A stretch of 64,000 bases of DNA from Gammaproteobacteria bacterium (GTDB lineage: Bacteria; Pseudomonadota; Gammaproteobacteria; Eutrophobiales; Eutrophobiaceae). The notes under the pieces were generated by a model. The model was not told the DNA's origin. It made no database searches and saw nothing but the letters and a program-made list of their open reading frames with translations. Both the position numbers and the translations under genes were made by a program. Within the stretch, counting starts at the first letter, position 1. Each line of letters starts with the position of its first letter. The stretch lies in the NCBI GenBank assembly GCA_965221695.1, contig OZ244905.1, forward strand, positions 320,001 through 384,000. The letters are read 5' to 3'. Positions 3,150 to 27,755 of this stretch are shown piece by piece.

Positions 3150-3632
3150 GTGGATAGAAATATCGTTTTTTGCGCTGTAATACTGATCGCAGTCGCAACG
3201 GCCTACTCGTTTCTGGGCATCGACCGCATGGCAACAATGGATGAAGTTGTGTCTGACGATCTTGGAGCCAGCCAGATGAGGCCGCTTGCGCAAGCGGAAA
3301 TGGTTTCTGCGCAAACTGCAGAACAACAACGCAAGGCAACATTGCGCGCTGAGTATGAGAAACTGGAACAGGCCCGGGAAGGGGTCAGGAAACAGCTTGG
3401 ATTGCTCAAGTTCCGGTTATGGAAATTGCGCGTGTCGCCTGAACAGTCCAGAGCAATACAGGAACAGATGCAGCAAGGTTATACTGCGCTGAAAAATCCT
3501 CCGTTGCTAGGCGCATTCTCAAGTGTGGATGAAATTGCCCGCGAAATAGAAAAGATGAGCGGGATCAGCGTCAACCTGAAAACTCTGGAGATGAAAGTGG
3601 AGAACCAGCTCGCTGGCCAGAATCCCCGCTAA
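3150..3632 (+). CDS. Hypothetical membrane-anchored coiled-coil protein
   Basis: 160 aa ORF with N-terminal hydrophobic helix followed by a heptad-rich E/Q/K region. Confidence 0.6.
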   Translation: MDRNIVFCAVILIAVATAYSFLGIDRMATMDEVVSDDLGASQMRPLAQAEMVSAQTAEQQRKATLRAEYEKLEQAREGVRKQLGLLKFRLWKLRVSPEQSRAIQEQMQQGYTALKNPPLLGAFSSVDEIAREIEKMSGISVNLKTLEMKVENQLAGQNPR

Positions 3633-4920
3633 GCTCCGCGTCAGCCACCAGCGCCCCGGCGCTTTCGTTATACTGCTTGACCAGCACAGTCATTATGCTG
3701 TTGGGACGGTGAGATTCGCCCGAAACCGCGATGGCTGTGCGCAAGTAATTTGGGGAGTAGCCGAAACGGACCTTTTTTCCGTTAATTTCTCCTGTATTGC
3801 TTTCAACCAGGATCTCGAAGCGCCGGCCCACATAGCCGCGCATATAGTCATGTTTCATCTGCGCAGCCAACTGCAGCAATTGCGCGCAACGTTGTTTCCT
3901 TAGCTGGCGCGGCAGTTGTCCCGGCAACAGGGCTGCCCGTGCGCCGGCGCGGGCTGAGTATGGAAAAACATGGATATGTGGAAACCCGATTTCCCGACAA
4001 AAATCCATGGTTTGCCGCCATTCTTGTTCGGTTTCGCCAGGAAACCCGGCGATAATGTCCGTGCTGATGTTCAAGTCAGGAACCCGTTGTCTGAGCCGCT
4101 CAACCAGCTTGATAAACTGCTTAGGTTTGCAACGCCGGCCCATGCGCCGCAATACGCTGTCACAACCGCTTTGCATGGGCAGATGCAAGTGAGGCATAAA
4201 TCCAGGTTCATTGAACAGTTCAAAAAAGTCTTCACCGATATCCCAAGGCTCCAGCGAACCTAGTCGTAATCTGGGAATCTTGGTTTCAGCGAGGACCGTT
4301 TTGATCAATGCCGGCAGGTTGGTTCCCAAGTCATGTCCATAACCGCCGATATGCACGCCGGTCAGAACTGCTTCCTGGATCTGATATGAGTGTAATGCAT
4401 TGATCTCCTCAACTATCTGCCTGATTGTCCGGCTGCGCTCCGCGCCCCGGGCCAGCGTGACAACGCAGAATGCGCATCGATGCCGGCAGCCGTCCTGTAT
4501 CTTGATGAATGCCCGGTTGCGCCCCCGGCTGAACAGGGCAGTTGTTCCCGGTTCTGTGGTTGCATTCGGCATGGTCTTCAAGTCCAGCCGTTGTGTTACG
4601 ATATCCGTCAGGCGATCCTTGTCCTGGTTGTCCACGACCAGGTCTATGCCCGGCAATTGTTTGACTGCGTCCGGATGCAGGCTCGAATAACAACCGCTGA
4701 CCACCAGCTTGGATTGTTTGTTGCTTCGCCGGATGCGCCGAATCAACTGCCTGGATTTTTTCGCCGCCTCACAAGTTACCGCGCAGGTATTGACGACTAT
4801 CAGGTCGGCATCTTCCGTGCCTGTGGTCAACTGGTTTCCCTGCGCCTGGAAAGCCGATGCCCAGCGTTCCAGTTCGGCCTCGTTCAGGCGGCACCCCAGC
4901 GCTTTAAGCGCAACTTTCAT
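3571..4920 (-). CDS. mtaB: tRNA t6A37 methylthiotransferase MtaB
   Basis: [26 protein letters not shown] radical SAM motif, HVFPYSAR. Confidence 0.9.
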
Positions 4921-6070
4921 AGTTCTCGATGGTCGCGCGCGCGATGATCAGCTTCTGTATCTCGGAGGCGCCTTCATAGATGCGTAGCGCGCGTATTTCA
5001 CGATACAGTTCTTCCACTTTTTCGCCTCGCGTTACGCCACGCCCGCCGAATAATTGGACCGCCTGATCTATGACCTGCTGCGCGGCTTCGGTTGCATGCA
5101 ATTTTGCTATGGCGGCTTCCCGCGTGATACGTTCCACCACGCAGTCCCGGGTCCAGGCGGCACGGTACACCAGCAGCGCGCTGGCATCGATAGCCACAGC
5201 CATGTCGGCAAGCTTGCCCCGGGTCATCTGCATATCTGCAAGAGTTTTGCCAAAGAGCTGCCGTGTGTTGGTGTGTCTGAGCGTTTCTTCCAGCGCACGC
5301 CGGGCGAAACCCAGCGCCGCAGCGCCAACGGTTGAGCGAAACATGTCTAAAGTGTCCATGGCTACTTTGAAACCCTCTCCGGGGCTGCCCAGCAGGTTTG
5401 TACTGGGAACCCTGCAATCCTTGAATTCAAGCCGGGCCAGGGGGTGGGGCGCAATCACTTCGATGCGCTCAGCGATTTCCAGGCCCTGTGTGCCGGCATC
5501 GACAATGAAGGCGCTGAGGCCCGCTGCGCCGCTTTCCTCACCGGTTCGGACAAACAGGGTATAAAAATCGGCGATACCGCCATTGGACACCCATGTCTTC
5601 TCGCCATTGATGATGTAGTCGTCGCCATCCGGCGTGGCTGTGGCGCTCAGCGCCGCGACATCGGAACCGGCCGCGGGTTCGGACAAGGCAAATGCAGAAA
5701 TCTTCTCGCCTTTGCGGACCGCAGGAAGGCGAGCGTTTTTTTGTTCCTGGTTCCCAAACAGCGCGATAGCGCCGCTGCCCAGTCCTTGCATTGCAAAAAC
5801 AAAATCAGCAAGACCGGAATGGCGCGCCAGGATCTCACGGATAAGACATAATGATCTGACATCCGGAGAGTTGTCGGAGTCGGGCGCCGGCGCGGCATGA
5901 TTGAGCCAGCCGCCGTCAGCCAGGAGTTTTACCAGTCTCTTGCAGGTCTGATCGACATTATCCGGATGCCGGCCGTTCAGTGCGCGCCTGGCCCACTCAT
6001 CCAGTTCAGTCGCCAGCAGTCTATGCTGATCCGTAAAAAAAGGCCAATCAAGAAAACTGTGGTCAATCAC
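4904..6070 (-). CDS. Acyl-CoA dehydrogenase (abm-cluster type)
   Basis: [32 protein letters not shown]; FLDWPFF N-terminus typical of those linked to anthraniloyl-CoA monooxygenase. Confidence 0.9.
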
Positions 6071-6872
6071 CTTTGAATTCCGCTTGGCTCTTATTCATAA
6101 AAGCCATGTAGGCGCGCCGGAAATCCTCCGTCTGCATGCAGATTGCCTGGGCCTGGGCCTCAGCTTCAAGAGCTTGATCCGGCGCCATATTCCATTCCTG
6201 ACGCAACATGGTTTTGGTGACGCCATGGGCAAATGTCGGTCCGTTTGAAAGCCGTTCGGCCAGTTTGCGCGCCTCAAGCGCCAACTCGTCTGTCGTTGCC
6301 AGAAAGTTATAAAATCCCCAACGATGGCCTTCTTCCGCGCTCATGCTGCGACCGCTGTAGAGCAGTTCCGAAGCGCGTCCGTGGCCGATAATCCTGGGCA
6401 GAATGGCGCAGGCTCCCATATCGCATCCGGCTAGTCCGACGCGGGTGAAAAGAAACGCGGTTTTTGCTTCCGGCGTGGCGATGCGCATATCGCTGGCCAT
6501 CGCGATACAGGCGCCGGCGCCCACGCAAACGCCGTCCACTGCAGCAATGAGCGGTTGCGGGCAGTAGAGCATGGCCTTGATGAGGTCGCCGGTCATTCGG
6601 GTAAACGCCAGCAGGTCTTTCATATTCATTTTCGTCAATGGCCCAATGATGTCGCGCACATCGCCACCGGAACAAAAATTCCCCTGCGCGCCGGCAATGA
6701 TCACAACTTTAACGTCATTGGCATCGGACAGGAGACGGAATGTATCACGCAATTCCGCGTAGGAGTCAAATGTCAGAGGATTCTTTTTCTCAGGACGGTT
6801 AAGGGTCAGTGTGGCTATGCCGTCGGAACAGGACCAGGAAAAATGTTGTGGGCGATGATCTTGCATATTCAT
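6063..6872 (-). CDS. Enoyl-CoA hydratase/crotonase family protein (abm-cluster type)
   Basis: [36 protein letters not shown]; start at 6872 avoids overlap with the SDR. Confidence 0.9.
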
Positions 6873-6898
6873 TTGGTTTACCAGGCTCGTTATCGGGC

Positions 6899-7663
6899 TT
6901 ACATGACCTCGCCGCCGGCTATCGGAATGGACTGGCCGGTAATCGATTCGCTGCCAGGCAGGCATAACCACGCGACTGCCGTAGCCACTTCCTGCGGTTC
7001 AATAAACCGATGTTGCGGATTCATTGATTTCAGGCGTGTCTCTGCGTCCTCTCGTGTCATACCGGTCTTGTCCATAATCCTGGATATCGCTTCCGTGATC
7101 AGGTCCGTATTGGTATAGCCGGGACAGATCGCGTTGACAGTCACGCCGGTATTGGCCAGTTCCAGCGCCAGGGACCGGGTCAGGCCGATCATACCGTGCT
7201 TGGCCGCGCAATAGGCGGATACGTAAGCATATCCAGTCAGTCCGGCTGTGCTTGCAATATTGACGATACGACCCCAATCGGCCTCCAGCATTCCATCAAG
7301 CGCTTGCTTGCTGCAATAAAACGCGCCGTTCAAGTTCACAGCCAGAGTCTGTTCCCAGTTCTTGCCGTCAATACGCGCAAATGGATTACTGTAAACTGCG
7401 CCGGCATTGTTCACCAGGATGTCGACCGGACCAAAAATGGTTATCGCCCGGTCAAACCCGGTTCGCACGGCGCTTTCGTCGGTCACGTCAACCTGTATTG
7501 AGTTAGCCCGTTTCAGTTTTTTCTCATGGGCATGCAAAACGCTTTGTGTCCGACCCATGAGGGTAATCCTGGCGCCCAAACGGTCCAGTTCGGCAGCGAT
7601 GGCGGCTCCTATGCCTTTGCCTCCACCTGTAACCACTACATGTTTATCGCTGAGCGCGGTCAT
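6899..7663 (-). CDS. SDR oxidoreductase (3-hydroxyacyl-CoA dehydrogenase-like, abm-cluster type)
   Basis: [18 protein letters not shown]-terminal GGEVM. Confidence 0.9.
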
Positions 7664-7709
7664 TTATATCTGTTCCCGGCGTGGACCAGAATACGACAAC
7701 CCGGGTCAA

Positions 7710-8867
7710 TCAACGATTAACCGTGTGGCCGCAGGCCATGCCGGCAATGATCATCTTCTGTATGTTGGATGTCCCTTCCACTACTTGCAGAGATTTGGCG
7801 TCGCGGTAAAACCGTTCCGCAGGATATTCAGTGGAATAGCCATAGGAACCGAAGATCTTCATGCACTCGTTCGCGCTGTGCACGGCCGCCTCGGATGCCG
7901 CCAGTTTAGCCATGGAGGTCTCATACTGATTGGGCTTGCCTTGGTCTTTCAGCCAGGCAGCCTTGTACACCAGCAAACGCGCGGCCTCGTGTTCTACTGT
8001 CATTTCAGCGATCTGGGACTGGATCATCTGATGCCGAGAAATGGGCTGGCCGAATTGTGTGCGTTCATTGGCATAGTCTATCGCAAGTTGCAGCGCGCCA
8101 CCGGCCACGCCCAAGGCGCCGGCCGCGCAACCGAGACGGGTATTATTCAACTGCCACATGCACATCCTGAAACCATTATTCAGCTCTCCGAGCAGGGCGC
8201 TACGGGGGATGCGCGCGCCCTCAAACACGAATTCGCCTGTTGGAGAACAGTGCAGGCCCAGTTTGGTCTCTATCGGCCGCGCCACGCAACCCTCCAGTTC
8301 CTTAGGTTCTATGATAAAGCAACTGATGCCCTTGTTGCCTTTTTCCCTGTCCGTGTAGGCATAGAGCAGCCCGGCATCGCCGATGTGAGCGTTGGAAATC
8401 CAGATCTTGCTGCCGTGTAATTCAAAATAATCGCCCTTGTCAATAGCATAGGTCTTCATGCTGGCAACATCGGAACCCGTATCCGGCTCAGTCATGGCGA
8501 AGAAGCCGATTTTTGTGCCGCTGATCCAGCCCGGGATATATTTCTCCTGTTGCTCCCTGGAGCCGAACTTTGCTATGGAAAGCGGTGGGCCGAGGTTTTG
8601 CATATTGAACGGCAAGCGCCAGGAAGCCGACACCCGGGCAATCTGTTCCGCCATCAGCGCTGATTCCAAAAAGCCCATCCCGTTTCCGCCAAGTTGTTCC
8701 GGCAGGGCGCAGGAAAAAAAACCAAGATCACCCATTTGCGCCACGCGTTCCTGTTTAAATTCCCGATTTTTTTCCTCTTCCTCCAGGGTAGGGGCTATCT
8801 CTTCCAAGGCGAAGCGTCTGGCGGTGTCCTGCACCAGTTGCTGTTCTTCAGTTAACTCAAAAAACAT
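7710..8867 (-). CDS. Acyl-CoA dehydrogenase, probably non-decarboxylating glutaryl-CoA dehydrogenase
   Basis: ACAD motifs; YAYTD..G..GISCFIIEP, KLGLHCSPTGE, YGYSTEYP..RFYRDA, VVEG resemble Desulfococcus Acd as I recall it; adjacent to gcd genes. Confidence 0.75.
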   Translation of the reverse strand: MFFELTEEQQLVQDTARRFALEEIAPTLEEEEKNREFKQERVAQMGDLGFFSCALPEQLGGNGMGFLESALMAEQIARVSASWRLPFNMQNLGPPLSIAKFGSREQQEKYIPGWISGTKIGFFAMTEPDTGSDVASMKTYAIDKGDYFELHGSKIWISNAHIGDAGLLYAYTDREKGNKGISCFIIEPKELEGCVARPIETKLGLHCSPTGEFVFEGARIPRSALLGELNNGFRMCMWQLNNTRLGCAAGALGVAGGALQLAIDYANERTQFGQPISRHQMIQSQIAEMTVEHEAARLLVYKAAWLKDQGKPNQYETSMAKLAASEAAVHSANECMKIFGSYGYSTEYPAERFYRDAKSLQVVEGTSNIQKMIIAGMACGHTVNR

Positions 8868-8880
8868 CGTAGTCTCTCAC

Positions 8881-9102
8881 TTATTCGGTCTTGATAGACA
8901 TCAAGGGTTGATCTTCCTCTACCGCATCCCCTTCCTTGACGTATATTTCTTTGACTGTACCGTCACAGGGCGCATATACTGGCGTTTCCATCTTTAATGC
9001 CTCAATAATAAGTATCTCGTCATCTTCTTCGACTTTTTCATCCACAGTCACCGAGATTTTCCAGATAGCGCCGGAGAGAGGCGCCAACACTTCTTCCGTC
9101 AT
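8881..9102 (-). CDS. gcdC: Biotin carboxyl carrier subunit of glutaconyl-CoA decarboxylase
   Basis: APLSGAIWK ... IEALKMET biotinyl-lysine motif; 73 aa; operon context. Confidence 0.8.
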   Translation of the reverse strand: MTEEVLAPLSGAIWKISVTVDEKVEEDDEILIIEALKMETPVYAPCDGTVKEIYVKEGDAVEEDQPLMSIKTE

Positions 9103-9119
9103 TATTATCCTCCAAGCAG

Positions 9120-10223
9120 TTATTTCAATATAGTCAGAAATATGCCGGCCGCAATCACGGTTCCGATCACACCGGCAATATTGGGTCCCATCGCAAACAT
9201 AAGCAAATAATTCTTTCTATCCGCTTCTGAACCGACTTTCTGTGCGACACGGGCCGCCATCGGCACCGCCGATACGCCCGCGGCGCCTATCAGCGGATTG
9301 ATTTTATGCGCCGTGAAGACATTGATCAGTTTAGCCAGTAATACACCACTTGCCGTGCTGATCATGAATGCGAACAGGCCGAGCAGGAAAACCAGGATAA
9401 CATCGGCATGTAAAAAGCGGTCTGCGCTCATGGTGGCGCCGATACTGACGCCCAGGAAAATGGTCGCGATATTCATCAGGGAATTGCGCGCGGCATCCGT
9501 CAGACGCTCGACCACCTTTGATTCCCGGAACAGGTTGCCCAGCATAAACATAGAGATCAACGGAGCCGACGCGGGCACTATCAGGATAATCACCAGCGTG
9601 GCAACGATGGGAAACAGCAGTTTTTCTTTTGCCCCGACCTTGCGCCCTTTGCGCATGCGAATCTTCCGTTCATCTTCCGTGGTCAACAGGCGCATTATCG
9701 GCGGCTGGATGATGGGCACCATGGCCATGTAGGAATAGGCGGCGACGGCGCAGGCTCCCAGCAGGTGCGGCGCCAGTTCAGCCGCCAGAAAGATGGTTGT
9801 GGGTCCGTCTGCGCCGCCGATAATACTGATAGTAGCCGCGTCCTGCAGATCGAAACCCATCCACCAGGCAAGAAAAAACGTCAGGTATACCCCGACCTGC
9901 GCGCCGGCGCCAAGAAAGATAAGGCGGGGTTGCGCAAGCAGCGGGCCAAAATCTGTGAGCGCGCCCAGTCCGAGGAAGATCAGGGGAGGTATGATGCGCC
10001 ACTCGATTCCGTGGTGATAGAAGCGCCACAGCAGCCCGTCTCCAGGGTCCATTAACCCGGTCAGGGGCAGATTGGCTAGCAGAATGCCAAATCCTATCGG
10101 CAACAACAGTAGTGGTTCATATTGTTTGGCTATGGCCAGGTAGATTAATGCCAGTCCTATCAGCCACATTGCCAGCAATTCGCCGGTGACCGCGAAAATG
10201 CCCATGTTTTCTATAAATGCCAT
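9120..10223 (-). CDS. gcdB: Na+-translocating decarboxylase beta subunit
   Basis: EPLLLLPIGFG, TDFGPL, IIGGADGPT, AAYSYMA, GVSAVPMAARV, AMGPNIAG. Confidence 0.93.
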   Translation of the reverse strand: MAFIENMGIFAVTGELLAMWLIGLALIYLAIAKQYEPLLLLPIGFGILLANLPLTGLMDPGDGLLWRFYHHGIEWRIIPPLIFLGLGALTDFGPLLAQPRLIFLGAGAQVGVYLTFFLAWWMGFDLQDAATISIIGGADGPTTIFLAAELAPHLLGACAVAAYSYMAMVPIIQPPIMRLLTTEDERKIRMRKGRKVGAKEKLLFPIVATLVIILIVPASAPLISMFMLGNLFRESKVVERLTDAARNSLMNIATIFLGVSIGATMSADRFLHADVILVFLLGLFAFMISTASGVLLAKLINVFTAHKINPLIGAAGVSAVPMAARVAQKVGSEADRKNYLLMFAMGPNIAGVIGTVIAAGIFLTILK

Positions 10224-10231
10224 GAATCGAG

Positions 10232-10360
10232 CTACTCGTCCTGTTCAGTATCCTTGCTGTCCGGCGTCAGCGCCAGCAGTTTAATGATCACATACAACAT
10301 CCCCATACCGGCTGCCACGCCGCCGATACCGTTAAAGAAAACTTCCAATACTTGTTCCAT
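10232..10360 (-). CDS. gcdD: Small single-TM membrane subunit of the Na+-decarboxylase (GcdD/OadG-like), not in the ORF track
   Basis: Hand translation MEQVLEVFFNGIGGVAAGMGMLYVIIKLLALTPDSKDTEQDE* (42 aa); fills the gcdA-gcdB gap. Confidence 0.75.
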   Translation of the reverse strand: MEQVLEVFFNGIGGVAAGMGMLYVIIKLLALTPDSKDTEQDE

Positions 10361-10375
10361 AAGTCGAATTCTATA

Positions 10376-12109
10376 CTATCTTCTGATGATCCTGGGCAGC
10401 ATCATCTGGTGTCTTGGACAGATTGAGCGAGGATTCTGGTGCGCGGCGCCGGCAAACGCCGTGAGATAATTTCTGAGTTCAACCAGGTCCACGATTTCGT
10501 CGACGAGGCCGTAACGCGCGCAATATTCAGGGTTGGAATGTTGCCGATATTGCTCGGCCAGGGCGTTCATCTTGTCAGCCACCTCATCCAACGGTTTACC
10601 CGCGTCTTTTTGTTTGACTGCGCGTCTTGAGTACATGGCAACCGCCGCGGTTTCTCCATGCATGACCGCAATCTCGGTAGCCGGGGTGCCTAGCGTGAAC
10701 GCATTGTGGCGATTCGCGGTCGGTCCACCCATCAGGTAATGGGCCGCGGCCGTGCCTTTGCGCAGAACGACAAGCATCATGGGAATGTCGGTTTGCTGTA
10801 TAGAATAAATCAGGGACTGGCCCAGACCCAGCAACTCGGCTTTCTCTGCCAGCTCGCCAACGTCTATGCCTGAAGTATCCTGGAACCAGACAATCGGAAC
10901 CCGGTCTCGACCGCAGTGAGTGACAAACTCGTTCATCTTGATCAGCCCCTGGCGATACAGTTTCCCTCCCATACCCGGATAGTCTGCATACTCCGGATAG
11001 CCTTTGCCGAGGTAACCGGAACGATTTCCGATACATCCAACCACGAAACCGTCCAGTCTGCACAACCCCGTATAAACCTCCGGGCCATAGTCGGGACGGA
11101 ATTCCATATGTTCACTGGCATCTACTAACCGGGCCAGAATTTCGTCGAATGAATACACTTCTTTCTGGTTGGAGGGCAGCAGGCAATACAAATCTTCAGT
11201 CGCGTAGGCTGGCTCAGCAGGCTCTGCTACCCGAAAAAAACGGGGTTTATAAGCGGGTATGGCCTCCATGTAGTCTCTGATGCCATCCAGCACCTCGGTC
11301 TCTTCCTCGAAGACCTCGGTAAAGAAGCCCGTCTCATGGTAATGAGTCTCGACCCGTCCAGGTGGTTTGGCGCTGAATGAACGGGTCATTTCAACCAGTT
11401 CTTCCAGGGCCTCAGCGCTGAATCCACCTTTCGGGGACATACCCGAGACGATGCCAACGCCACCAACAGCTATGTTCGCGTTCTTGTGAGCCAGGAGAAT
11501 AGTGGGACTGATGCCATGGTAGCCGCCGCCGGCAGGATTTGTGCCGTAGATGCCGGCAAGCACGGGGATACCAAGCTGGTTCAATTCCGCATGGCGAAAG
11601 AATGTGGCGCCCGATCCGCGCCGGTTGGCATAGAACTTTTCCTGCTCATCCAGTTTCACACCACTGCAGTTAACCAGCCAGATCAAGGGCACATTAAGTC
11701 GCTTGGCCAAGTCGGTAACACGTAAGATGTTCTCCGATTGGCCCGGCAACCAGGCGCCGGCCAGCACCTTGTTGTCAAAACCGATCACCACTGCCCAACG
11801 TCCCGCCACCCTGGCAAGCCCGTCTACCACATTGGTTGAACCGTTGGCATTGTCTGAAGGATTGTACAAACTGTGCAAAGGCCGCCAGGAACCCGGATCG
11901 ATGAGATGTTCCAGGCGTTGCCAGACAGTCATTGTGCCGCGCTGGTTGATCTGTTCGGTGGAGAAACCCGCCTGCTCGATATCTTTTCTGCATTGCGCAA
12001 TGTCCGCTTCCACCTGTTTAAGCTGTTCGATGCTTGCGGCAGCGCGCTTGATCCGGCCGGACTTCAACTGTTTGCCAAATCGTTGCATGTTCTCGAAATA
12101 AGATTTCAT
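10376..12109 (-). CDS. gcdA: Glutaconyl-CoA decarboxylase alpha (carboxyltransferase) subunit
   Basis: YFENM..GK.L, DNKVLAGAW.PGQ, NCSGVK.DEQEK, GIYGTNPAGGGY, GGKLYRQGLIKMNEFVT match GcdA. Confidence 0.92.
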   Translation of the reverse strand: MKSYFENMQRFGKQLKSGRIKRAAASIEQLKQVEADIAQCRKDIEQAGFSTEQINQRGTMTVWQRLEHLIDPGSWRPLHSLYNPSDNANGSTNVVDGLARVAGRWAVVIGFDNKVLAGAWLPGQSENILRVTDLAKRLNVPLIWLVNCSGVKLDEQEKFYANRRGSGATFFRHAELNQLGIPVLAGIYGTNPAGGGYHGISPTILLAHKNANIAVGGVGIVSGMSPKGGFSAEALEELVEMTRSFSAKPPGRVETHYHETGFFTEVFEEETEVLDGIRDYMEAIPAYKPRFFRVAEPAEPAYATEDLYCLLPSNQKEVYSFDEILARLVDASEHMEFRPDYGPEVYTGLCRLDGFVVGCIGNRSGYLGKGYPEYADYPGMGGKLYRQGLIKMNEFVTHCGRDRVPIVWFQDTSGIDVGELAEKAELLGLGQSLIYSIQQTDIPMMLVVLRKGTAAAHYLMGGPTANRHNAFTLGTPATEIAVMHGETAAVAMYSRRAVKQKDAGKPLDEVADKMNALAEQYRQHSNPEYCARYGLVDEIVDLVELRNYLTAFAGAAHQNPRSICPRHQMMLPRIIRR

Positions 12110-12234
12110 TATGACTTTTTCCTCAACCAGGAACGAGTAATGTTAGCAGGTCTTAATAATGCGGGTAGCAGGCATTATAAATCAGGAACAAGAAACTGGA
12201 TACCCGCTGTTGGGAGAATGGTATAGTAGTTTCC

Positions 12235-12633
12235 ATGTCTATGCGGATATTACAACCACCCGGCTGGCCATATCCCCGAGGTTACTCCAATGGCATCATG
12301 GCGCGTGGCAGGATGATCTTCATCGCCGGACAAATCGGTTGGGATGAAACAAATATCATACAAAGCGACCGCCTCGCTGACCAAGTTCGCCAGGCCCTGA
12401 AAAATACCCTTGCAGTGCTGAGCGAAGCGAATGCCGGACCTGAACATGTCGCCAGGATGACCTGGTATGTCGTTGATAAACAGGAATATTTGTCGTCCCT
12501 GAAAGAAATCGGAAAAGCGTACCGGGATGTTATGGGCAACAACTACCCGGCAATGGCATTGTTAGAGGTGTCCGGATTACTTGAGGACAGGGCAAAAGTG
12601 GAAATCGAAACCACAGCCGTCCTACCAGATTGA
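12235..12633 (+). CDS. RidA/YjgF family enamine/imine deaminase
   Basis: LQPPGWP.PRGYSNG, AGQIGW, YPAM, VEIETTA. Confidence 0.9.
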   Translation: MSMRILQPPGWPYPRGYSNGIMARGRMIFIAGQIGWDETNIIQSDRLADQVRQALKNTLAVLSEANAGPEHVARMTWYVVDKQEYLSSLKEIGKAYRDVMGNNYPAMALLEVSGLLEDRAKVEIETTAVLPD

Positions 12634-12800
12634 GCCCGCTGAAAGTCAATGGGACCTAAAGTCAGCTAAAGGCCGCTTAACTGTTTTGACGCATTGCTCC
12701 TGACCAGCCAAACACGACGGCGCGGACGAGATCATATCTTAGTACAGTATCAGGGCAGGGACGCTGGCCGTCGTCAGACTGGGTATAGCAGACATGGATA

Positions 12801-12829
12801 TTGACACTAAAATAATTTGCGCTTAAAAT
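12801..12829 (+). promoter_or_regulatory. sigma70 promoter for rplM-rpsI
   Basis: TTGACA (12801-06), 17 nt spacer, TAAAAT (12824-29). Confidence 0.8.
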
Positions 12830-12861
12830 TCATCTTTTTAACGCGCATTTACTGAATCTTC

Positions 12862-13290
12862 ATGAAAACCTACACCGCCACGCCGGCAGACATCAAACCT
12901 GAGTGGCATCTTGTTGATGCCAAGGGAAAAGTCCTTGGCAGGCTTGCTACAGAAATTGCCAGGCGCTTGCGTGGAAAACACAAGCCGGAATATACCCCGC
13001 ACATGGATACCGGCGATTATGTGATCGTCATCAACGCAAAAGATGTCCAGGTAACGGGAAACAAGGCAAGCAGCAAAACTTATTATCGCCACACCGGCTA
13101 CCCAGGCGGCATCAGGTCTATCACTTTCGATAAGTTGATCCGCTCAAAGCCGGAACGGGTCATTGAAAAAGCAGTCAAAGGCATGTTGCCCAAAGGCCCC
13201 CTGGGCCGGGATATGTTTCGCAAGCTGCGGGTTTATCCCGACAGCAATCATCGCCATGACGCGCAACAACCTAAACCGCTGGAATTATAA
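12862..13290 (+). CDS. rplM: 50S ribosomal protein L13
   Basis: LGRLAT..A..LRGKHKP.YTPH.DTGD; [10 protein letters not shown]. Confidence 0.98.
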
Positions 13291-13900: not shown

Positions 13901-16294
13901 ATGAGTAACGGTCTTAAAATAATCTGTCTTGGCGGGGGGCCGGCATCGCTTTATTTCTCCCTGCTGATGAAAAAAGCAAATCCCGCTCATAATATTCAAG
14001 TCATTGAACGGGGTCCCTCCGATGCTACCTGGGGTTTCGGCGTGGTGTTTTCCGATGACACCTTACGTGGGTTTATGGAAGCCGACCCGCCTAGTTACAA
14101 ACGCATCGTGGAACAATTCGCCTACTGGGACCGGATAGAGACCCGCATACACGGCGCAAGCGTGGTGAGTGGCGGGCACGGATTCTGCGGATTGTCGCGG
14201 CTTAAGCTGTTGAATGCGTTGCATGATCGTTGTGAGGAACTGGGTGTAGCCCTGAAATTCAACACCGATATTACCGACCTGGCGCAGCTTGAGATCGATA
14301 AACACGATCTGGTCATAGCCGGAGACGGCATCACTTCTATGCTCCGCAGCGCCTATGCGGAGGCATTCGGCGTCAGCATGGACTGGCGGTCCAATCGTTT
14401 CTGCTGGCTGGCGACTACCTTGCCGTTGGATAATTTTACTTTTACTTTTCGGAAAAACGAACATGGCTGGTGGTGGACACACGGCTATCGCTACGAACAA
14501 GGCATGTCTACCTGGATCGTGGAATGCAACCGGCAGACCTGGTTGAACGCAGGAATGGATGCGTTCTCGGAACAAGACACCCGCGCTTATATCGAGGAGG
14601 TGTTCAGGGAAGACCTGCGCGGCCATCCTGTCATCACCAACCGCTCGGTCTGGCGCGAATTCCCTGTTGTGCGCAATGCCAGGCTCTACCACAGGAACAT
14701 CGTGTTGTTGGGTGATGCCGGGCGATCGGCCCATTTTTCTGTCGGTTCCGGCACCAAGCTTGCCATGGAGGACGCGATTACACTGGCCGGCATATTCCGG
14801 GATCAGGGCGATTGCGTCCCGTCCGCGCTAAAGGCATACCAGCAAATCCGTAAACCAGAGGCGGATCGTCTGCAACGCGCTGCGGTGACCAGTTTGCGCT
14901 GGTTTGAGAATGTGGAGCGCTATGCCGGCCAGGATCCATTGCAGTTCACATTCAACATGCTTGCCCGCTCCAAGCGGGTCACCTATGACAACCTGAGACT
15001 GCGTGATCCCTCATTTATTCGCGCCACAGACCAGTGGTTTGCAACCAATACTCAGGCGTTGACCGGTTTCGACGACATCGATACGGAAAACCCTGTTGCG
15101 CCGATGTTTCAACCGTTCAGAATAGGGCGGATGCGAGTGGAAAACCGCGTTCAGCTCTCCGCTATGTGCCAGTATTGCGCGTCAGACGGGGTGCCTGGTG
15201 AATGGCATTTTGTGCATTACGGCTCACGGGGAGTGGGCGGAGTCGGCCTGGTGAATACGGAAATGTTGTGCGTGTCGGCAGACGCTCGAATCACCCATGG
15301 CTGCGCCGGATTATGGAATGCGGAGCAAACAGAGCAATGGCGGCGTATCTGCGTGTTTATCCATCAGCACAGTAGGGCAAAAGTCTGCGCGCAAATCGGT
15401 CATGCCGGCCGCAAAGGCGCGACCTGCATCCCTTGGCAAGGCGGGATCGATCAACCACTGCCGTCTGAGGACTGGGAGATCATGGCGCCGTCGCCGTTGC
15501 CGTACCTGGAGCATAGCCGGGTCCCGCGGGAGATGACCGGCGCGGATATGGAGCGAGTGGAACAAGATTTCGTGAACGCAACGAAAAACGCGATTGCCGC
15601 CGGTTTTGATATGCTGGAGTTGCATATGGCGCACGGTTACCTGCTGTCGTCCTTCATTAGCCCTTGCGCCAACCTGCGCCGGGACGAACATGGCGGGGAC
15701 ATCAATGGCCGGGCTCGTTTCCCGTTGCGAATCTTGCGCGCCGTGCGCCGGATCTGGCCCGTAGAGCGTCCTTTGTCGGCGCGCATCTCAGCTACTGACT
15801 GGACTGGCGACGGGCTCTCCGAACAGGATCTGCTGACTTTCGTCCGATTGTTAAAAGACAACGGCGTCGACCTCATCAATGTCTCCACCGGACAGGTGGT
15901 CAGCTACGAAGAACCTGTCTATGGGCGAATGTACCAGGCTCCGTTTTCTGACCTGATCCGCAACGAGGTAGGGATTGCGACCGTGGTAGCCGGCAATATT
16001 ACCAATGCCGATCAAGTCAATACGCTGATCGCCGCAGGCAGAACCGACCTGGTGGCGCTGGCGCGCCCGCTTATGAACGAACCCCAGTTCGTGCTGAATG
16101 CTGCGGCCCGTTACGGATATCGCGCGCAGCGCTGGCCGGAACAGTACGCCGCGGGCAAATTCGCGGCCGAGTTGATTGCTGAGCGGGAGCGTAGCGAAGA
16201 GATCGAGCTGAAAATCAGCGCAAAACCCCCGAACCCACAGGAAATACTGGCCGTCGCGATCGCCAGGGGTGAAGTGTTTCTGGAGAAACCCTGA
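13901..16294 (+). CDS. abmA: Bifunctional 2-aminobenzoyl-CoA monooxygenase/reductase (salicylyl-CoA 5-hydroxylase family)
   Basis: N-terminal FAD monooxygenase (GGGPA, GFGVVFSD, HFSVGSGTKLAMED) fused to an OYE-type reductase (MCQY, HAGRKG, ELHMAHGYLLSSFISP). Confidence 0.88.
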   Translation: MSNGLKIICLGGGPASLYFSLLMKKANPAHNIQVIERGPSDATWGFGVVFSDDTLRGFMEADPPSYKRIVEQFAYWDRIETRIHGASVVSGGHGFCGLSRLKLLNALHDRCEELGVALKFNTDITDLAQLEIDKHDLVIAGDGITSMLRSAYAEAFGVSMDWRSNRFCWLATTLPLDNFTFTFRKNEHGWWWTHGYRYEQGMSTWIVECNRQTWLNAGMDAFSEQDTRAYIEEVFREDLRGHPVITNRSVWREFPVVRNARLYHRNIVLLGDAGRSAHFSVGSGTKLAMEDAITLAGIFRDQGDCVPSALKAYQQIRKPEADRLQRAAVTSLRWFENVERYAGQDPLQFTFNMLARSKRVTYDNLRLRDPSFIRATDQWFATNTQALTGFDDIDTENPVAPMFQPFRIGRMRVENRVQLSAMCQYCASDGVPGEWHFVHYGSRGVGGVGLVNTEMLCVSADARITHGCAGLWNAEQTEQWRRICVFIHQHSRAKVCAQIGHAGRKGATCIPWQGGIDQPLPSEDWEIMAPSPLPYLEHSRVPREMTGADMERVEQDFVNATKNAIAAGFDMLELHMAHGYLLSSFISPCANLRRDEHGGDINGRARFPLRILRAVRRIWPVERPLSARISATDWTGDGLSEQDLLTFVRLLKDNGVDLINVSTGQVVSYEEPVYGRMYQAPFSDLIRNEVGIATVVAGNITNADQVNTLIAAGRTDLVALARPLMNEPQFVLNAAARYGYRAQRWPEQYAAGKFAAELIAERERSEEIELKISAKPPNPQEILAVAIARGEVFLEKP

Positions 16295-16350
16295 TTCAAC
16301 CGCTTCCCGACCCGCTGCTCAGGTCAAAATTAACTTGAAAGAGTACTAAG

Positions 16351-16501
16351 GGAAACTCTGAACAAGTCCATCCTGGACTTATCAGAGCACGAAAAACAAA
16401 AATGCGATTTTTGTTTTCCTCACAATATCAATGCTTTACAGTCATTGATATTGACGATACATCCTTGTATCGTAGGAACCTCTGACTTAATCAGAGGTTC
16501 C
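16351..16501. mobile_element. Multi-hairpin MITE-like element, full copy 1 (151 bp)
   Basis: Terminal IRs GGAAACTCTGA/TCAGAGGTTCC, flanking TAAG direct repeat, five tandem hairpins; inverted homolog at 62598-62820. Confidence 0.85.
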
Positions 16502-16570
16502 TAAGGTTAATCATGGGTTATACTGTTCCGAAAATCTGATGCTGAAGGCGGTCATAGCAGGAGAGAGAAC

Positions 16571-17884
16571 ATGAAACAATACTCAAATGACGAGTTGTCG
16601 GGCCTGGTAAAAGAAGATTCGGTTCATAAAAAAGTCTATACGGACCCTGAAATCTTTGACCTGGAAATGGAGCGCATCTGGAACAAGTCCTGGATATATG
16701 TGGGACATGACAGCCAGGTCAAACAGCCGGGCGATTATTTTGCCACAAGCATCGGCAAGCAACCGGTTGTCATGACCCGACACCGGGATGGCAAGGTGCA
16801 TGTGCTGTTCAACCGTTGCAGTCACAAAGGCGCTCAAGTTGTGGGAGACACTTGCGGAAACCTGCCGCAACTGCGTTGCAGTTACCATGGTTACGTGTTC
16901 GATACCGATGGGACATTGCTCCACATCCCCAGGGAAGAAGGCTATAGCGGGGTTGGATTTGGCAAAGGCAGCGCCGAATCCAACATGCAACAAGCGCCGC
17001 GTGTCGACAGTTATCACGGACTGGTGTTCGCCAGTCTGACAAGCAACGGGCCGGATTTACAAACATGGTTAAGCGGCGCCGCGGCATCCATCGATAACTT
17101 GGTGGAACGCTCTCCTGAAGGGCGCATTGAAATTGCCGGCGGTTGTTTCCGCTACCTGCATGATTCCAACTGGAAGATGTTTGTGGAAAACCTGAACGAC
17201 GCCATGCACCCCATGGTTGTGCACCAGTCTTCCAGCGGCACCGCAAAGCGAGTATTTGATGAACGCTTGAAAGAAGGCGATCCGGTCCCGTTTGAACTGG
17301 AGATGCTGGCGCCGTTTACTAACAACTACGAGTTCTTTGAAAAAATGGGACTCACGGCCTGGGATTACGGGCATAGCGTCACCGGTGGAAAATTCAGCAT
17401 TCACTCAGCCTATTCGCCCATACCCGGTTACATGGACGCTTTGATCGATAAATACGGCGAACAGAAGGCCAAGGAAATCCTCGCGGTAAACCGCCACAAT
17501 ACCGTTGTCTACCCCAGTTTTACCTTGAAAGGCGCCATCACTTCGATCCGTGTCGTCAAGCCGGTGGCGGTAGATAAGACGGTTATCGAGTCATGGGTGT
17601 TCAAGCAGGTGGGCGCTCCTGAGGAACTGTTCCGGCGATCCATCACCTATTGCAACCTGATCAATTCCCATGCCAATCTGGTTGGCCCGGATGACTATGA
17701 AGCCTATCACCGCTTGCAGCATGGCTTGCAGACAGAAGACGGCAATGAATGGGTGAGTCAGCATCGTTATCTAGGCAAGGACGAAGTGGATGAGGATGGC
17801 GCCCGGCACGCGGCGGGCACCTCCGATATGGTCTTTCGCCACCAGTTCCAGACCTGGAAGAACTACATGGTTGGCCTTCAATGA
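16571..17884 (+). CDS. Rieske non-heme iron oxygenase alpha subunit (IadD-like)
   Basis: CSH..CSYH Rieske ligands; ENLNDAMHPMVVH and DDYE mononuclear-Fe ligands. Confidence 0.9.
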   Translation: MKQYSNDELSGLVKEDSVHKKVYTDPEIFDLEMERIWNKSWIYVGHDSQVKQPGDYFATSIGKQPVVMTRHRDGKVHVLFNRCSHKGAQVVGDTCGNLPQLRCSYHGYVFDTDGTLLHIPREEGYSGVGFGKGSAESNMQQAPRVDSYHGLVFASLTSNGPDLQTWLSGAAASIDNLVERSPEGRIEIAGGCFRYLHDSNWKMFVENLNDAMHPMVVHQSSSGTAKRVFDERLKEGDPVPFELEMLAPFTNNYEFFEKMGLTAWDYGHSVTGGKFSIHSAYSPIPGYMDALIDKYGEQKAKEILAVNRHNTVVYPSFTLKGAITSIRVVKPVAVDKTVIESWVFKQVGAPEELFRRSITYCNLINSHANLVGPDDYEAYHRLQHGLQTEDGNEWVSQHRYLGKDEVDEDGARHAAGTSDMVFRHQFQTWKNYMVGLQ

Positions 17885-17965
17885 CGCCATTGTCAATGCT
17901 TCGGACAATCAACATAGCCAGAGCTTTTCTGCGCTCTTCTTTTTTTAGAACAGGACTGAATTCTC

Positions 17966-18466
17966 ATGCAGACCCCGCAGCAAACCAACCCGCCTGATCT
18001 CCGATCATTGGAACAATTTCTGTATCACGAAGCGCGCCTGCTGGATGAACAACGCTGGGAGGAATGGAATGCCCTATACCTTGAAGACGCTGAATACTGG
18101 GCGCCGGCGGCGCCGGACCAGGAGGATCCGCACAACCATGTCTCGCTTATCTATGAAACGGGGCTGCTCAGGGCCGTGCGCATCAAACGTTACAGGCACC
18201 CCAATGCTTTTTCCCTGCAACCTCAACCCCGTAGCGCGCACCTGGTAAGCAATGTCATGCTGGACAGCTTTGATGAGAATACCCTGGAGTGCCAGGTCAA
18301 TTCCCGTTTCATCATGTTGCAGTATCGGCGCGAGAAACAGGATGTGTTTGCCGGGACCTACCAGCACAAACTGCGCATTGAGGGGAATGAATTCAGGATC
18401 GCCGCCAAGCGTATCGACTTGCTCAACTGCGACGCGCCGCTGGAAAATATACTCATATATTTCTAA
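17966..18466 (+). CDS. Ring-hydroxylating oxygenase beta subunit
   Basis: FLYHEARLLDE, HLVSNV, KRIDLLNCD. Confidence 0.92.
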   Translation: MQTPQQTNPPDLRSLEQFLYHEARLLDEQRWEEWNALYLEDAEYWAPAAPDQEDPHNHVSLIYETGLLRAVRIKRYRHPNAFSLQPQPRSAHLVSNVMLDSFDENTLECQVNSRFIMLQYRREKQDVFAGTYQHKLRIEGNEFRIAAKRIDLLNCDAPLENILIYF

Positions 18467-18766
18467 ATGCCCTCCGCACAAGGGAAATCCACTGATTCCG
18501 CCGCGTACCGGAAATTCAGGCGCATTCACAACAGATTGTCCTGGATACTGATCACCGCGCTGGTCGGCCTGGCGCTGGCATTTGATCTGTTCAACGTCTA
18601 CGCAAAAAAGCTCATGGGCGCTCCGCTGGTAGAACACAGCGTGATTTCCATCGGCATGTTCATTGCGCTGTTGATCATCCTGATTATTCTTGCCGCCGCA
18701 GTGTATTACACACTCAGGATCAATGCCGCTTACCTGGAGCTGCGCGAGTCCCAGGACGATGACTGA
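18467..18766 (+). CDS. DUF485 (YjcH-like) small membrane protein
   Basis: Two TM helices; directly precedes the ActP-type symporter. Confidence 0.75.
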   Translation: MPSAQGKSTDSAAYRKFRRIHNRLSWILITALVGLALAFDLFNVYAKKLMGAPLVEHSVISIGMFIALLIILIILAAAVYYTLRINAAYLELRESQDDD

Positions 18767-20318
18767 CCTGAATTATCCTGCGATTGCGTCGTTTGTACTG
18801 TTTATTATCGCCACATTGTTTATCACCGTGTATGCCGCGCGCCGCACACGTTCCAGAAAAGACTTCTACGTGGCAGGCAACGCCATCGGGGGCATACAGA
18901 ACGGCATCGCCATTTCCGGGGATTATATGTCCGCCGCTTCTTTCCTGGGCCTGGTGGGGCTTTTTTTTCTTGGCGGCTATGACACCATCTATTTTATCGT
19001 AAACCTGATTCTGAGTTGGGCGGTGGTGCTGTTTCTAATCGCCGAAAAGCTGCGCAACCTGGGCTCCTATACCTTTGCGGACGCGGTGTCGGTCAGGCTG
19101 GCGACACGACCGATACGGATACTCGCAGCTACCGTCACCCTGGCTGTAGCCATCCCGTACATGCTGGCGCAGATGGTCGCCGCCGGCGCTTTGTTCGAAT
19201 CTCTGTTCGGCCTCAGTTTCAGCCAAGGTGTGCTGGCAGTTGGCGTTCTGATGACTATTTATATCACTTTCGGCGGTATGATCGCGACCACCTGGGTGCA
19301 GATCATCAAGGCCGCGCTGCTGGTTGGCGGCGGCACCGTTCTTACAGTGGGGGTGCTTGCCAGTTTCAACTTTGACGTCAACAGATTGGCCGAACTGGCC
19401 GTGGCGGCGCACCCGCAAGGCATAGCCATCATGCAGCCGGGACTACTCTACCCGGACCTTATTTCCGTAGTTTCCCTGAGCCTCGCGTTTATCGGCGGCA
19501 CTGCGGGATTGCCCCATGTCCTGATGCGTTTTTTTACCGTGCCGGACGGTGTACAAGCCCGGCGTTCGGCTGCCTGGGCCATGGGAATCATCAGCTATTT
19601 CCAATTGCTGGTACTGTTCATCGGCCTTGGAGCGATAGTATTGTTGACGAACAATCCTGAATTCAGCGCCGGCGGTCTGCAGTTGCGTGGCGGCAGCAAT
19701 ATGGCGGCGATACACCTTTCGCAAATCATTGGCGGCAATATCTTCATGGGGTTTATCTGCGCGGTCGCATTTGCCACCATTCTCGCAGTAGTGTCAGGTC
19801 TGATGCTGTCCGCCGCCGCCACTATTTCCCACGACCTTTATGCCGGCGTTATCCGCAAAGGAGAATGCGACGAAGCTGAAGAGTTACGCGTGTCTCGATT
19901 GACAGTAGTCGTGTTGAGCGTTATCGGTATCTTGCTTGCCCTGATGTTCGAGGGCCAGAATGTGGCCGTGCTGGCCACCTTGCCTCTGGTAATCGCGGCC
20001 AGCGCCAACTTTCCCATTCTGTTCCTGTTCATGTACTGGAAAGGTTTCACCACCCGTGGCGCGCTGTTCGGCGGTTACACCGGATTGGCTCTGGCTGTCA
20101 GTCTGATCATTCTTGGCCCGACCGTCTGGGTTAACGTACTGGGTTACGAACAAGCGTTGTTTCCCTACACTTATCCGACCTTATTTTCCATGGGCGCTTG
20201 TTTCCTGTTTGCCTGGTTTTTCTCGATCACAGACAACAGCCCGCGCGCCGCCGCGGAAGCCGCCGCGTTTGCCGAACAGCAGCGCCGCTCACATTTGGGC
20301 GAACTGTCGTGCGGCTGA
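18759..20318 (+). CDS. actP: Cation/acetate symporter ActP family (solute:sodium symporter)
   Basis: NGIAISGDYMSAASFLG, GGMIATTWVQIIKA, GTAGLPHVLMRFFTVPD, AFATILAVV. Confidence 0.9.
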   Translation: MTDLNYPAIASFVLFIIATLFITVYAARRTRSRKDFYVAGNAIGGIQNGIAISGDYMSAASFLGLVGLFFLGGYDTIYFIVNLILSWAVVLFLIAEKLRNLGSYTFADAVSVRLATRPIRILAATVTLAVAIPYMLAQMVAAGALFESLFGLSFSQGVLAVGVLMTIYITFGGMIATTWVQIIKAALLVGGGTVLTVGVLASFNFDVNRLAELAVAAHPQGIAIMQPGLLYPDLISVVSLSLAFIGGTAGLPHVLMRFFTVPDGVQARRSAAWAMGIISYFQLLVLFIGLGAIVLLTNNPEFSAGGLQLRGGSNMAAIHLSQIIGGNIFMGFICAVAFATILAVVSGLMLSAAATISHDLYAGVIRKGECDEAEELRVSRLTVVVLSVIGILLALMFEGQNVAVLATLPLVIAASANFPILFLFMYWKGFTTRGALFGGYTGLALAVSLIILGPTVWVNVLGYEQALFPYTYPTLFSMGACFLFAWFFSITDNSPRAAAEAAAFAEQQRRSHLGELSCG

Positions 20319-23558: not shown

Positions 23559-23632
23559 TCGCTAACCTGCAAACACTGGCCGTTTCGGATACCCGTTTGC
23601 TCAGGAGCCGACGCTGCCACAGGAGATGAAAT

Positions 23633-27165: not shown

Positions 27166-27221
27166 AGCAAGATTCAAACATTCATATCAATTTATTCCGC
27201 CGATGATTGTGAGGGTAAAAC

Positions 27222-27740: not shown

Positions 27741-27755
27741 CCTTAGGTTGGTCCG

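Follow-up and report, generated by a model that had tools for sequence, protein, structure and literature searches.

The stretch analysed here, referred to as the window, comprises 64,000 nucleotides from the genome of an uncultured gammaproteobacterium of the family Eutrophobiaceae (assembly GCA_965221695.1, contig OZ244905.1, positions 320,001 to 384,000; all coordinates below are those of the window). Between positions 7710 and 12109 it carries five genes for a glutaconyl-CoA decarboxylase (GcdA, GcdB, GcdC and a GcdD-like peptide) and for an acyl-CoA dehydrogenase (ACAD), called Acd here. We regard it as likely that this operon forms a complete, Na+-pumping, two-step route from glutaryl-CoA to crotonyl-CoA, which stands in for the decarboxylating glutaryl-CoA dehydrogenase (GcdH) in a cell that respires oxygen. 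In the proposed mechanism, Acd, an FAD enzyme, would oxidise glutaryl-CoA to glutaconyl-CoA with no release of CO2, and its electrons would pass through the electron-transfer flavoprotein (ETF) and the ETF:quinone oxidoreductase (ETF-QO) into the quinone pool and on to O2. GcdA would move the free carboxyl group onto the biotin of GcdC, and GcdB, anchored together with the GcdD-like peptide, would decarboxylate the carboxybiotin and export Na+. The free energy of the decarboxylation would be kept as a Na+ gradient, because the block would replace GcdH, which is lacking in the genome and in the genus. In this genus, the products of the co-transcribed genes ech and sdr would probably convert crotonyl-CoA further to acetoacetyl-CoA. 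A single gain of the block that preceded the diversification of the genus is most likely, with a module lineage of Pseudomonadota and Acidobacteriota as its source.

This finding undercuts a widely used rule for reading physiology from genomes. Passages of PMC5852087 and PMC13416013 assign the decarboxylating enzyme to facultative anaerobes, and the non-decarboxylating enzyme together with a Na+-pumping decarboxylase to obligate or strict anaerobes; the pair of acd and gcd serves there as the marker by which obligate anaerobes are told apart from facultative anaerobes and from aerobes, both of which are said to use GcdH. No description of an Acd and Gcd module in aerobes or in host-associated bacteria was found in the literature searched, mostly at the level of titles and abstracts. 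In the present genome, acd and gcd are complete, apparently functional, and the only route next to four haem-copper oxidase genes. Five further hosts, which belong to four other lineages, show the same.

Organization of the gcd-acd block

The block is part of a close-packed string of genes on the minus strand, which extends from 3571 to 12109 according to the list of open reading frames (ORFs) and their coordinates. The interval 7710–12109 holds exactly five genes, in the order gcdA, small membrane peptide, gcdB, gcdC and acd, with intergenic gaps of 8–17 nt (15, 8, 17 and 13 nt from gcdA to acd). The tight operon of five genes that the original prediction had recognized is therefore confirmed gene by gene, and the enzyme identities assigned at that time to the carboxyltransferase, the membrane subunit and the biotin carrier are upheld by the comparisons that follow.

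The decarboxylase subunits

The first gene, gcdA (10376–12109), encodes the carboxyltransferase subunit of glutaconyl-CoA decarboxylase, a protein of 577 residues with a PF01039 Carboxyl_trans domain (323.8 bits). Searched against the PDB, it matches the GcdA proteins of Acidaminococcus fermentans (1PIX, 743.3 bits) and Clostridium symbiosum (3GF3, 703.5 bits), in both cases over residues 1–576, whereas all other carboxyltransferases in that database reach at most 142 bits. On the mmdA model, which describes methylmalonyl-CoA decarboxylase, the protein scores 127 bits against a cut-off of 998.8. By its sequence, it is a GcdA-type carboxyltransferase, distinct from the methylmalonyl-, propionyl- and methylcrotonyl-CoA enzymes.

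The gcdB gene (9120–10223) is the sole OAD_beta gene of the genome and encodes the predicted Na+-translocating carboxybiotin decarboxylase subunit, with 367 residues (PF03977 OAD_beta, 518 bits; TIGR01109, 493.4 bits against a cut-off of 190.6). In an alignment with the OadB subunit from Salmonella (6IVA, 389 bits), GcdB residues E36, D139, Y165, R240 and N247 correspond to E40, D203, Y229, R304 and N311 of OadB, and residues N309, G313, S318, R325 and N348 to N373, G377, S382, R389 and N412. All ten of these mapped, functionally tested OadB residues are kept in GcdB, and the position of OadB S419 is occupied by a threonine. According to passages of PMC7274780, from which the roles of the further mapped residues are also taken, D203, S382, N412, E40, R304 and N311 bind Na+ or are essential. 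GcdB carries the Na+-binding residues of the OAD_beta membrane subunit and would be expected to pump Na+.

The biotin carrier GcdC (8881–9102, 73 residues) consists of a biotinyl domain only (PF00364 Biotin_lipoyl, 62.2 bits). Its biotinyl-lysine motif reads EALKM, as in 39 of the 59 gcdC homologues of the fetched loci, the other 20 having EAMKM; the classical biotin motif is given as MKM in a passage of PMC7145394. The genome also has a BirA gene, and GcdC is predicted to be biotinylated. Between gcdA and gcdB lies an ORF for a peptide of 42 residues with one hydrophobic helix (10232–10360), which may be called GcdD-like by analogy, from its position and its helix. At the same position, weakly similar ORFs of about 41–48 residues are found in other loci of both lineages described below. 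The combination of a short GcdC and a short GcdD was considered as a peculiarity of the window operon and rejected, both lineages having them: a GcdC of about 71–73 residues and a small peptide of about 41–48 residues are also found in Desulfobacterales-type loci.

The dehydrogenase Acd

The last gene of the block, acd (7710–8867), encodes a putative non-decarboxylating glutaryl-CoA dehydrogenase of 385 residues, in which four ACAD domains are recognized. Its best match in the PDB is 3MPI, the non-decarboxylating glutaryl-CoA dehydrogenase of Desulfococcus multivorans (349.9 bits), followed by short-chain or butyryl-CoA dehydrogenases (302.8 bits). The active-site signature of the non-decarboxylating enzyme is present: R84 is matched to R87 of 3MPI, and V363-E364 to V366-E367. 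In the butyryl-CoA dehydrogenase 4L1F, the first of these columns lacks an arginine and the second reads Tyr-Glu-Gly. In an alignment of 64 ACAD rows, the combination of Arg and Val-Glu-Gly is found in all 45 rows of clade B, which denotes the window-type lineage of ACAD and GcdA from Pseudomonadota and Acidobacteriota, and in all ten rows of the Desulfo-type, the lineage of the Desulfococcus and Desulfobacterales proteins. None of six other ACADs from the window's own genome has it. The ACADs of three betaproteobacterial loci combine the arginine with Tyr-Glu-Gly-Thr, and one of them (locus L083) scores 750 bits against solved GcdH structures.

A careful tree was built from 33 rows, hand-picked from the 64 alignment rows and six GcdH sequences of relatives, and comprising 12 clade-B proteins, six of the Desulfo-type, nine GcdH and six own paralogues. 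All 18 gcdA-linked ACADs form one clade (support 99/97), which splits into two fully supported sister clades (100/100), clade B and the Desulfo-type; the nine GcdH rows form a clade of their own (100/100). The window Acd lies outside the GcdH clade and is 32% identical to the GcdH of L083. The kinship with the non-decarboxylating enzymes that the original prediction had proposed is sustained by both the alignment and the tree, with Acd as sister to the Desulfococcus-type enzymes and not grouped with other ACADs. We file it as a sister lineage of the characterised enzyme, and not as a member of the NF045552 equivalog, because it scores below the cut-off of that model. Acd is predicted to release no CO2.

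Many proteins that are 79–85% identical to Acd bear the JGI name “glutaryl-CoA dehydrogenase (non-decarboxylating)” and at NCBI mostly that of “acyl-CoA dehydrogenase family protein”, while GcdA relatives are often named glutaconyl-CoA decarboxylase automatically. Automatic annotation is here ahead of the literature.

GcdH and respiration in the genome

The genome consists of one contig of 3,539,060 bases, in which 11 ACADs were found by phmmer with both ACADs of the window as queries. The original prediction had left the presence of gcdH to be checked, and none of the 11 is a GcdH, whether judged by PDB matches, NCBIfam, alignment, tree or a search with a GcdH query. As there is no GcdH model among the NCBIfam matches, GcdH was sought through the PDB and with the verified GcdH of L083 as query, whose best match in the genome is the operon's own ACAD, at the same 32% identity. 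Against the PDB, three of the genome's ACADs appear as one ACAD11-like protein and two generic short- or medium-chain enzymes, with no GcdH among the strong matches, and the remaining ones look like short-chain types or long FadE-like proteins according to NCBIfam. The tree included six own ACADs of about 380–406 residues, none of which joins the GcdH clade; four long FadE-like proteins were left out of it.

Aerobic respiration is encoded, in keeping with the oxygen-using host originally envisaged. There are four genes of the COX1 family (haem-copper oxidase subunit I), the best two scoring 530.5 and 407.9 bits, as well as genes for ETF-QO, ETF alpha and ETF beta. Together, ETF, ETF-QO and the oxidases would provide a plain path for electrons from the ACAD to O2.

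Distribution of the two routes

GcdA is present in all 22 other genomes of the genus, at 79–91% identity, and was not found in the 18 genomes of other genera in the same search (two from the same family and 16 from other families). An even sample of the class yielded it in one of 399 other genomes (E ≤ 1e-150; one genome could not be scored), and none of four genomes from other genera of the family has it, two of them taken from the genus search and two from the class sample. With the GcdH query the picture is inverted: the best matches in all 22 genomes of the genus reach only 32–35% identity, the level of paralogues, whereas eight of the 18 other genomes give matches of 48–69%, among them the genome of a sister genus (G024), which is without GcdA and whose GcdH orthologue is 68% identical. 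Within the family, the Gcd route and the GcdH route exclude each other, because the genus has GcdA without GcdH and the sister genus shows the reverse.

Outside the genus, a scan of species-representative genomes returned at least 539 stretches with a GcdA relative, the best 80 of which were kept, a set biased toward close relatives of the query. All of these best 80 come from metagenome-assembled genomes (MAGs), to judge by their record titles. Their hosts are uncultured Gammaproteobacteria, including Woeseiaceae, Lysobacterales and Pseudomonadales; Acidobacteriota (Vicinamibacterales and “Ca. Marinacidobacterales”); Alphaproteobacteria (Undibacter); Betaproteobacteria (Sterolibacterium, Comamonadaceae and Burkholderiales); and Myxococcota, Fibrobacterota and Desulfobacterales. 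An Acd-type ACAD lies within the flanks in 61 of these 80 loci, 51 being of the window type (656–834 bits) and ten of the Desulfo-type (355–377 bits); some of the other 19 sit on short contigs. The core conserved outside the genus is gcdABCD and acd only, with none of the genes sdr, ech and acad2 that follow acd in the window. In a class sample drawn around a Vicinamibacterales host, 14 of 151 genomes have GcdA, two already known hosts included. The question raised with the original prediction, whether the module is already common in aerobic Gammaproteobacteria, has a divided answer: it is rare in the class sample, yet it recurs in uncultured gammaproteobacterial lineages and in other oxidase-bearing phyla.

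Five clade-B hosts of other lineages were compared at the genome level, namely members of Marinacidobacterales (L047), Woeseia (L058), Undibacter (L061) and Vicinamibacterales (L065) and a gammaproteobacterial MAG (L035). COX1 exceeds the cut-off in all five, and a GcdH orthologue (E ≤ 1e-80) was found in none of them with a query that worked elsewhere, the completeness of these genomes not being given. Whether an old and distinct lineage of Acd and GcdABCD has replaced GcdH in many oxygen-respiring bacteria, among them this genus, Woeseiaceae, gammaproteobacterial MAGs, Vicinamibacteria and some Alpha- and Betaproteobacteria, is a matter on which we find the evidence evenly balanced.

The two routes are found side by side in three betaproteobacterial loci (L066, L083 and L091), where a true GcdH gene lies a few kb from acd–gcdA on the opposite strand. 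The gcdB-like genes of the alpha- and betaproteobacterial loci score about 150–360 bits against the window GcdB, and those of the gammaproteobacterial and acidobacterial loci about 600–740 bits. In another locus (L072), the clade-B-type ACAD is split into two fragments that adjoin each other (356 and 326 bits), perhaps through a frameshift or an assembly error, and it was left out of the trees.

The distribution also bears on the direction of the reaction. The block might run in reverse, with a Na+-driven carboxylation of crotonyl-CoA to glutaconyl- and glutaryl-CoA for biosynthesis, or it might serve mainly to extrude Na+. Reverse operation of Gcd has been discussed for Syntrophus. Moreover, glutaryl-CoA is described as a biotin precursor in the BioZ route in PMC8024396. 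We nevertheless consider such a role very unlikely, since an ETF-linked ACAD feeding ETF-QO and oxidases favours the oxidative direction, and a distribution complementary to that of the catabolic GcdH points to catabolism.

Evidence against the proposed route and alternative functions

A number of findings weigh against a Na+-pumping glutaryl-CoA route. The best NCBIfam match of Acd, the Acd equivalog NF045552, is reached with 429.7 bits, under the cut-off of 470; five other clade-B ACADs score 420–462 bits on this model and three of the Desulfo-type 761–791 bits, the highest value being that of the Acd from a Desulfococcus sp. locus (L086, 791 bits), to which the window Acd is 48% identical. 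No assayed enzyme of its clade was found in the literature searched. The weight given to the signature itself goes back to the work of Wischgoll et al. of 2010, in which the change from Tyr to Val beside the catalytic Glu, along with the Arg that is conserved, reportedly decides whether decarboxylation is promoted or prevented. The outgroups of the ACAD tree are the six paralogues of the same genome and the nine GcdH only, and the 42-residue peptide matches no NCBIfam family. On the side of metabolism, no source of glutaryl-CoA was identified in the genome; BamA/Oah is not found above the cut-off (best score 76.9 bits against 464). On the side of the gradient, no NqrB passes the cut-off in the genome, which has one RnfD-like match of 132.5 bits, and the only consumers of Na+ that can be pointed to are Na+/solute symporters, for instance the candidate encoded by the ActP-like gene at 18690–20318. 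Finally, the block is not uniform within the genus. One member (L028) has gcdA, the small peptide and gcdB, but the 8 kb that follow gcdB contain neither gcdC nor acd, and another (L043, identical to G017:C252) has gcdA–gcdC–acd–mtaB and lacks gcdB, the small peptide, sdr, ech and acad2.

Three observations stand beside these points. The genome of L028 has an Acd-like match about 15 kb away. The anaerobic benzoyl-CoA route was considered as a source of glutaryl-CoA and rejected, there being no BamA/Oah over the cut-off. With no Nqr above the cut-off, the module could be a main primary Na+ pump for Na+-coupled uptake in this genome.

Some of these findings would also fit a different substrate. 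In that case, the same machinery would act on another, related dicarboxylyl-CoA, for instance a longer one or one with a methyl branch, in a pathway that draws on the genus-specific sdr–ech–acad2 genes, and glutaryl-CoA would not be the physiological substrate. The score of Acd under the equivalog cut-off and its 48% identity to the characterised type agree with this, as do the extra β-oxidation genes in the same operon and the missing source of glutaryl-CoA. We hold it to be unlikely, however, in view of the 743 bits of GcdA to a solved glutaconyl-CoA decarboxylase against 142 bits for the next kind of enzyme, and of the Arg and Val-Glu-Gly residues that are invariant across 55 gcdA-linked ACADs. 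Furthermore, the core outside the genus is formed by gcdABCD and acd, without sdr, ech and acad2, and GcdH is missing where the block is present, which fits the replacement of its function.

The altered loci of L028 and L043 raise another alternative, in which the genes, although intact, would be silent or relics in decay that no longer serve a function. We give this little credence: the frames are all open and the functional residues are kept, GcdA is 79–91% identical across 22 species of the genus, and the genus has no alternative GcdH. A functional route by which glutaryl-CoA becomes crotonyl-CoA is therefore the reading that we retain, at the strength given at the outset.

Origin of the block

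A quick GcdA tree of 71 rows, from which eight own-genus loci had been left out to thin the genus, has two sides with a starred support of 97*/97*. One side (24 rows) contains Thermodesulfobacteriota, Myxococcota and Fibrobacterota, and the other (47 rows) contains Pseudomonadota and Acidobacteriota, including the window with its genus, so that all 12 Thermodesulfobacteriota rows are on the side opposite to the window GcdA. The ACAD trees repeat this split; therefore, the two genes travelled together. Inside the Pseudomonadota/Acidobacteriota side, the groups correspond only loosely to class and phylum. The GcdA and ACAD trees also place the genus differently within clade B, with weak support, so we name no donor. 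The GC content is 0.54 for the block and 0.55 for the genome, a comparison that gives no compositional sign of transfer.

The original prediction had explained the block by horizontal acquisition of an anaerobe-type module. Understood as a recent import of a module of the Desulfococcus or Syntrophus type from a strict anaerobe into one oxygenase-using gammaproteobacterium, this would agree with the rarity of the block in the class sample (one of 399 other genomes) and with its absence from the four genomes of other genera of the family. It is contradicted, however, by the occurrence of GcdA in 22 of 22 genus genomes, with all five genes from gcdA to acd in 11 of the 12 genus loci whose flanks are long, by the ordinary GC content, and by the position of both GcdA and Acd in the Pseudomonadota/Acidobacteriota lineage, Acd being 80–89% identical to clade-B proteins and 48% to the Desulfococcus type. 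We consider a recent import highly improbable, and this part of the original prediction is not supported in the form in which it was stated. The most economical explanation is that the block was acquired once, at an early date preceding the diversification of the genus, from the Pseudomonadota/Acidobacteriota lineage and with loss or absence of gcdH, in which case the donor would be a member of that same lineage and not a strict anaerobe.

Further genes of the string and their neighbourhood

Past acd, the string continues on the minus strand with sdr, ech, acad2 and mtaB. The product of sdr (6899–7663, 254 residues) is a short-chain dehydrogenase/reductase (SDR) resembling 3-hydroxyacyl-CoA or 3-hydroxybutyrate dehydrogenases (adh_short, 202.7 bits); its best NCBIfam match is PRK12429, 3-hydroxybutyrate dehydrogenase, with 231.9 bits, under the cut-off of 258, and the gene follows acd in own-genus loci only. 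The ech gene (6063–6872) encodes an enoyl-CoA hydratase family protein (NF006107, 468.9 bits against a cut-off of 330; ECH_1, 153.8 bits). Its ORF is listed from 6971, and on re-reading the likely start is the in-frame ATG at 6872, 26 nt past the sdr stop, which gives a protein of 269 residues. It overlaps by 8 nt with acad2 (4904–6070), which encodes a second acyl-CoA dehydrogenase of 388 residues with ACAD domains. This protein matches no NCBIfam model above cut-off, is without the arginine, has Tyr-Glu-Gly at the catalytic base, and is placed outside both the gcdA-linked and the GcdH clades in the 33-row tree. The string ends with a mtaB-like gene for a radical-SAM methylthiotransferase (3571–4920; TIGR01579, 387.3 bits against a cut-off of 357), which is probably co-transcribed with acad2, because the two overlap by 17 nt. 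It is not part of the pathway; a housekeeping gene of tRNA modification is apparently found at the tail of a catabolic operon, and mtaB follows the block in seven own-genus loci.

On the other side of gcdA, a divergent gene of the RidA family (12235–12633, plus strand; PF01042, 77.6 bits) adjoins it, as in own-genus loci and in another gammaproteobacterial locus (L046). A consensus scan of positions 3300–12900 gave six promoter-like sites (7.0 ± 2.9 expected by chance) and 16 terminator-like sites (9.8 ± 3.2), counts near chance, and the scan is therefore silent on the limits of the operon.

The oxygen-dependent neighbours noticed originally are real. The region 13901–24364, directly after rplM–rpsI, starts with a fusion of an FAD monooxygenase and an old yellow enzyme (OYE) family reductase (13901–16294, 797 residues), which scores 1031.7 bits on a “salicylyl-CoA 5-hydroxylase/oxidoreductase” model and narrowly misses its cut-off of 1078. 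Next come the alpha and beta subunits of a Rieske dioxygenase (16571–18466), the ActP-like cation/acetate symporter mentioned above, an acyl-CoA ligase and a thiolase-like protein, and then a 158-residue ORF without a match and an SDR. The fusion gene lies upstream of the gcd block in seven of the 12 own-genus loci with long flanks. The region looks like a CoA-dependent aerobic pathway for an aromatic acid. Farther on, at 25921–30579, there is a protein resembling the heavy chain of methylamine dehydrogenase (PF06433, 171 bits), and near it a second Rieske ring-hydroxylating alpha subunit (27756–29075) and a second OYE-family protein (29059–30579).

Significance and comparison with known systems

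The picture of an imported anaerobe-type gene should be replaced by that of a sister lineage of the module, native to several oxygen-respiring groups and replacing GcdH there. If this is true, the pairing of non-decarboxylating glutaryl-CoA dehydrogenase with a Na+ pump is a mark of Na+-based economy of energy also among aerobes, and not one of obligate anaerobiosis. Should assays confirm it, the acd and gcd marker would be unusable for inferring anaerobic physiology from metagenomes, and the curated Acd model would need widening to the sister clade. It would also follow that aerobes in some habitats find the decarboxylation energy, put at about 30 kJ/mol in the abstract of PMC7145394, worth saving as a Na+ gradient.

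One of the closest known systems is the pair of Acd (also GDH-Des; 3MPI/3MPJ) and Gcd of Desulfococcus multivorans and Syntrophus aciditrophicus. Its dehydrogenase has the same Arg and Val-Glu-Gly as the window Acd and falls into the same clade (99/97); in both, acd stands beside gcdA, gcdB and gcdC, and GcdC and the small peptide are of similarly short length. The window Acd differs in belonging, at 48% identity, to a separate sister clade (100/100) that co-varies with a separate GcdA clade. The hosts of clade B have haem-copper oxidases and no GcdH, whereas passages of the literature tie the route to obligate anaerobes.

Firmicutes such as Acidaminococcus fermentans and Clostridium symbiosum have a Gcd with the same layout, in which GcdA, GcdB, GcdC and GcdD are the four subunits, and a GcdA homologous over its full length. 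Their glutaconyl-CoA comes from the fermentation of glutamate through 2-hydroxyglutarate, whereas in the window it would come from the adjacent ACAD. Passages of PMC7145394 describe two half-reactions for Gcd, which are also expected for the window enzyme, and a clostridial GcdC of 14–15 kDa, anchored at its N-terminus and provided with an Ala/Pro linker, next to a GcdD of 10 kDa; the window has a bare biotinyl GcdC of 73 residues and a small subunit of 42 residues instead.

GcdH (3D6B, 3GNC, 1SIQ) shares with Acd the substrate predicted here, the ACAD fold and the column of the carboxylate-binding arginine, but it has Tyr-Glu-Gly-Thr in place of Val-Glu-Gly, forms a separate, fully supported clade and is about one-third identical. 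The oxaloacetate decarboxylase OadGAB of Salmonella, Klebsiella and Vibrio (6IVA/6IWW) has a beta subunit homologous to GcdB, in which the Na+-site and essential residues are kept. It differs in its TIM-barrel OadA, in place of which the window has a crotonase-fold GcdA acting on a CoA thioester, and the biotin domain of the window system is a separate protein. With OadGAB, Gammaproteobacteria already offer a familiar case of a Na+ pump that depends on biotin.

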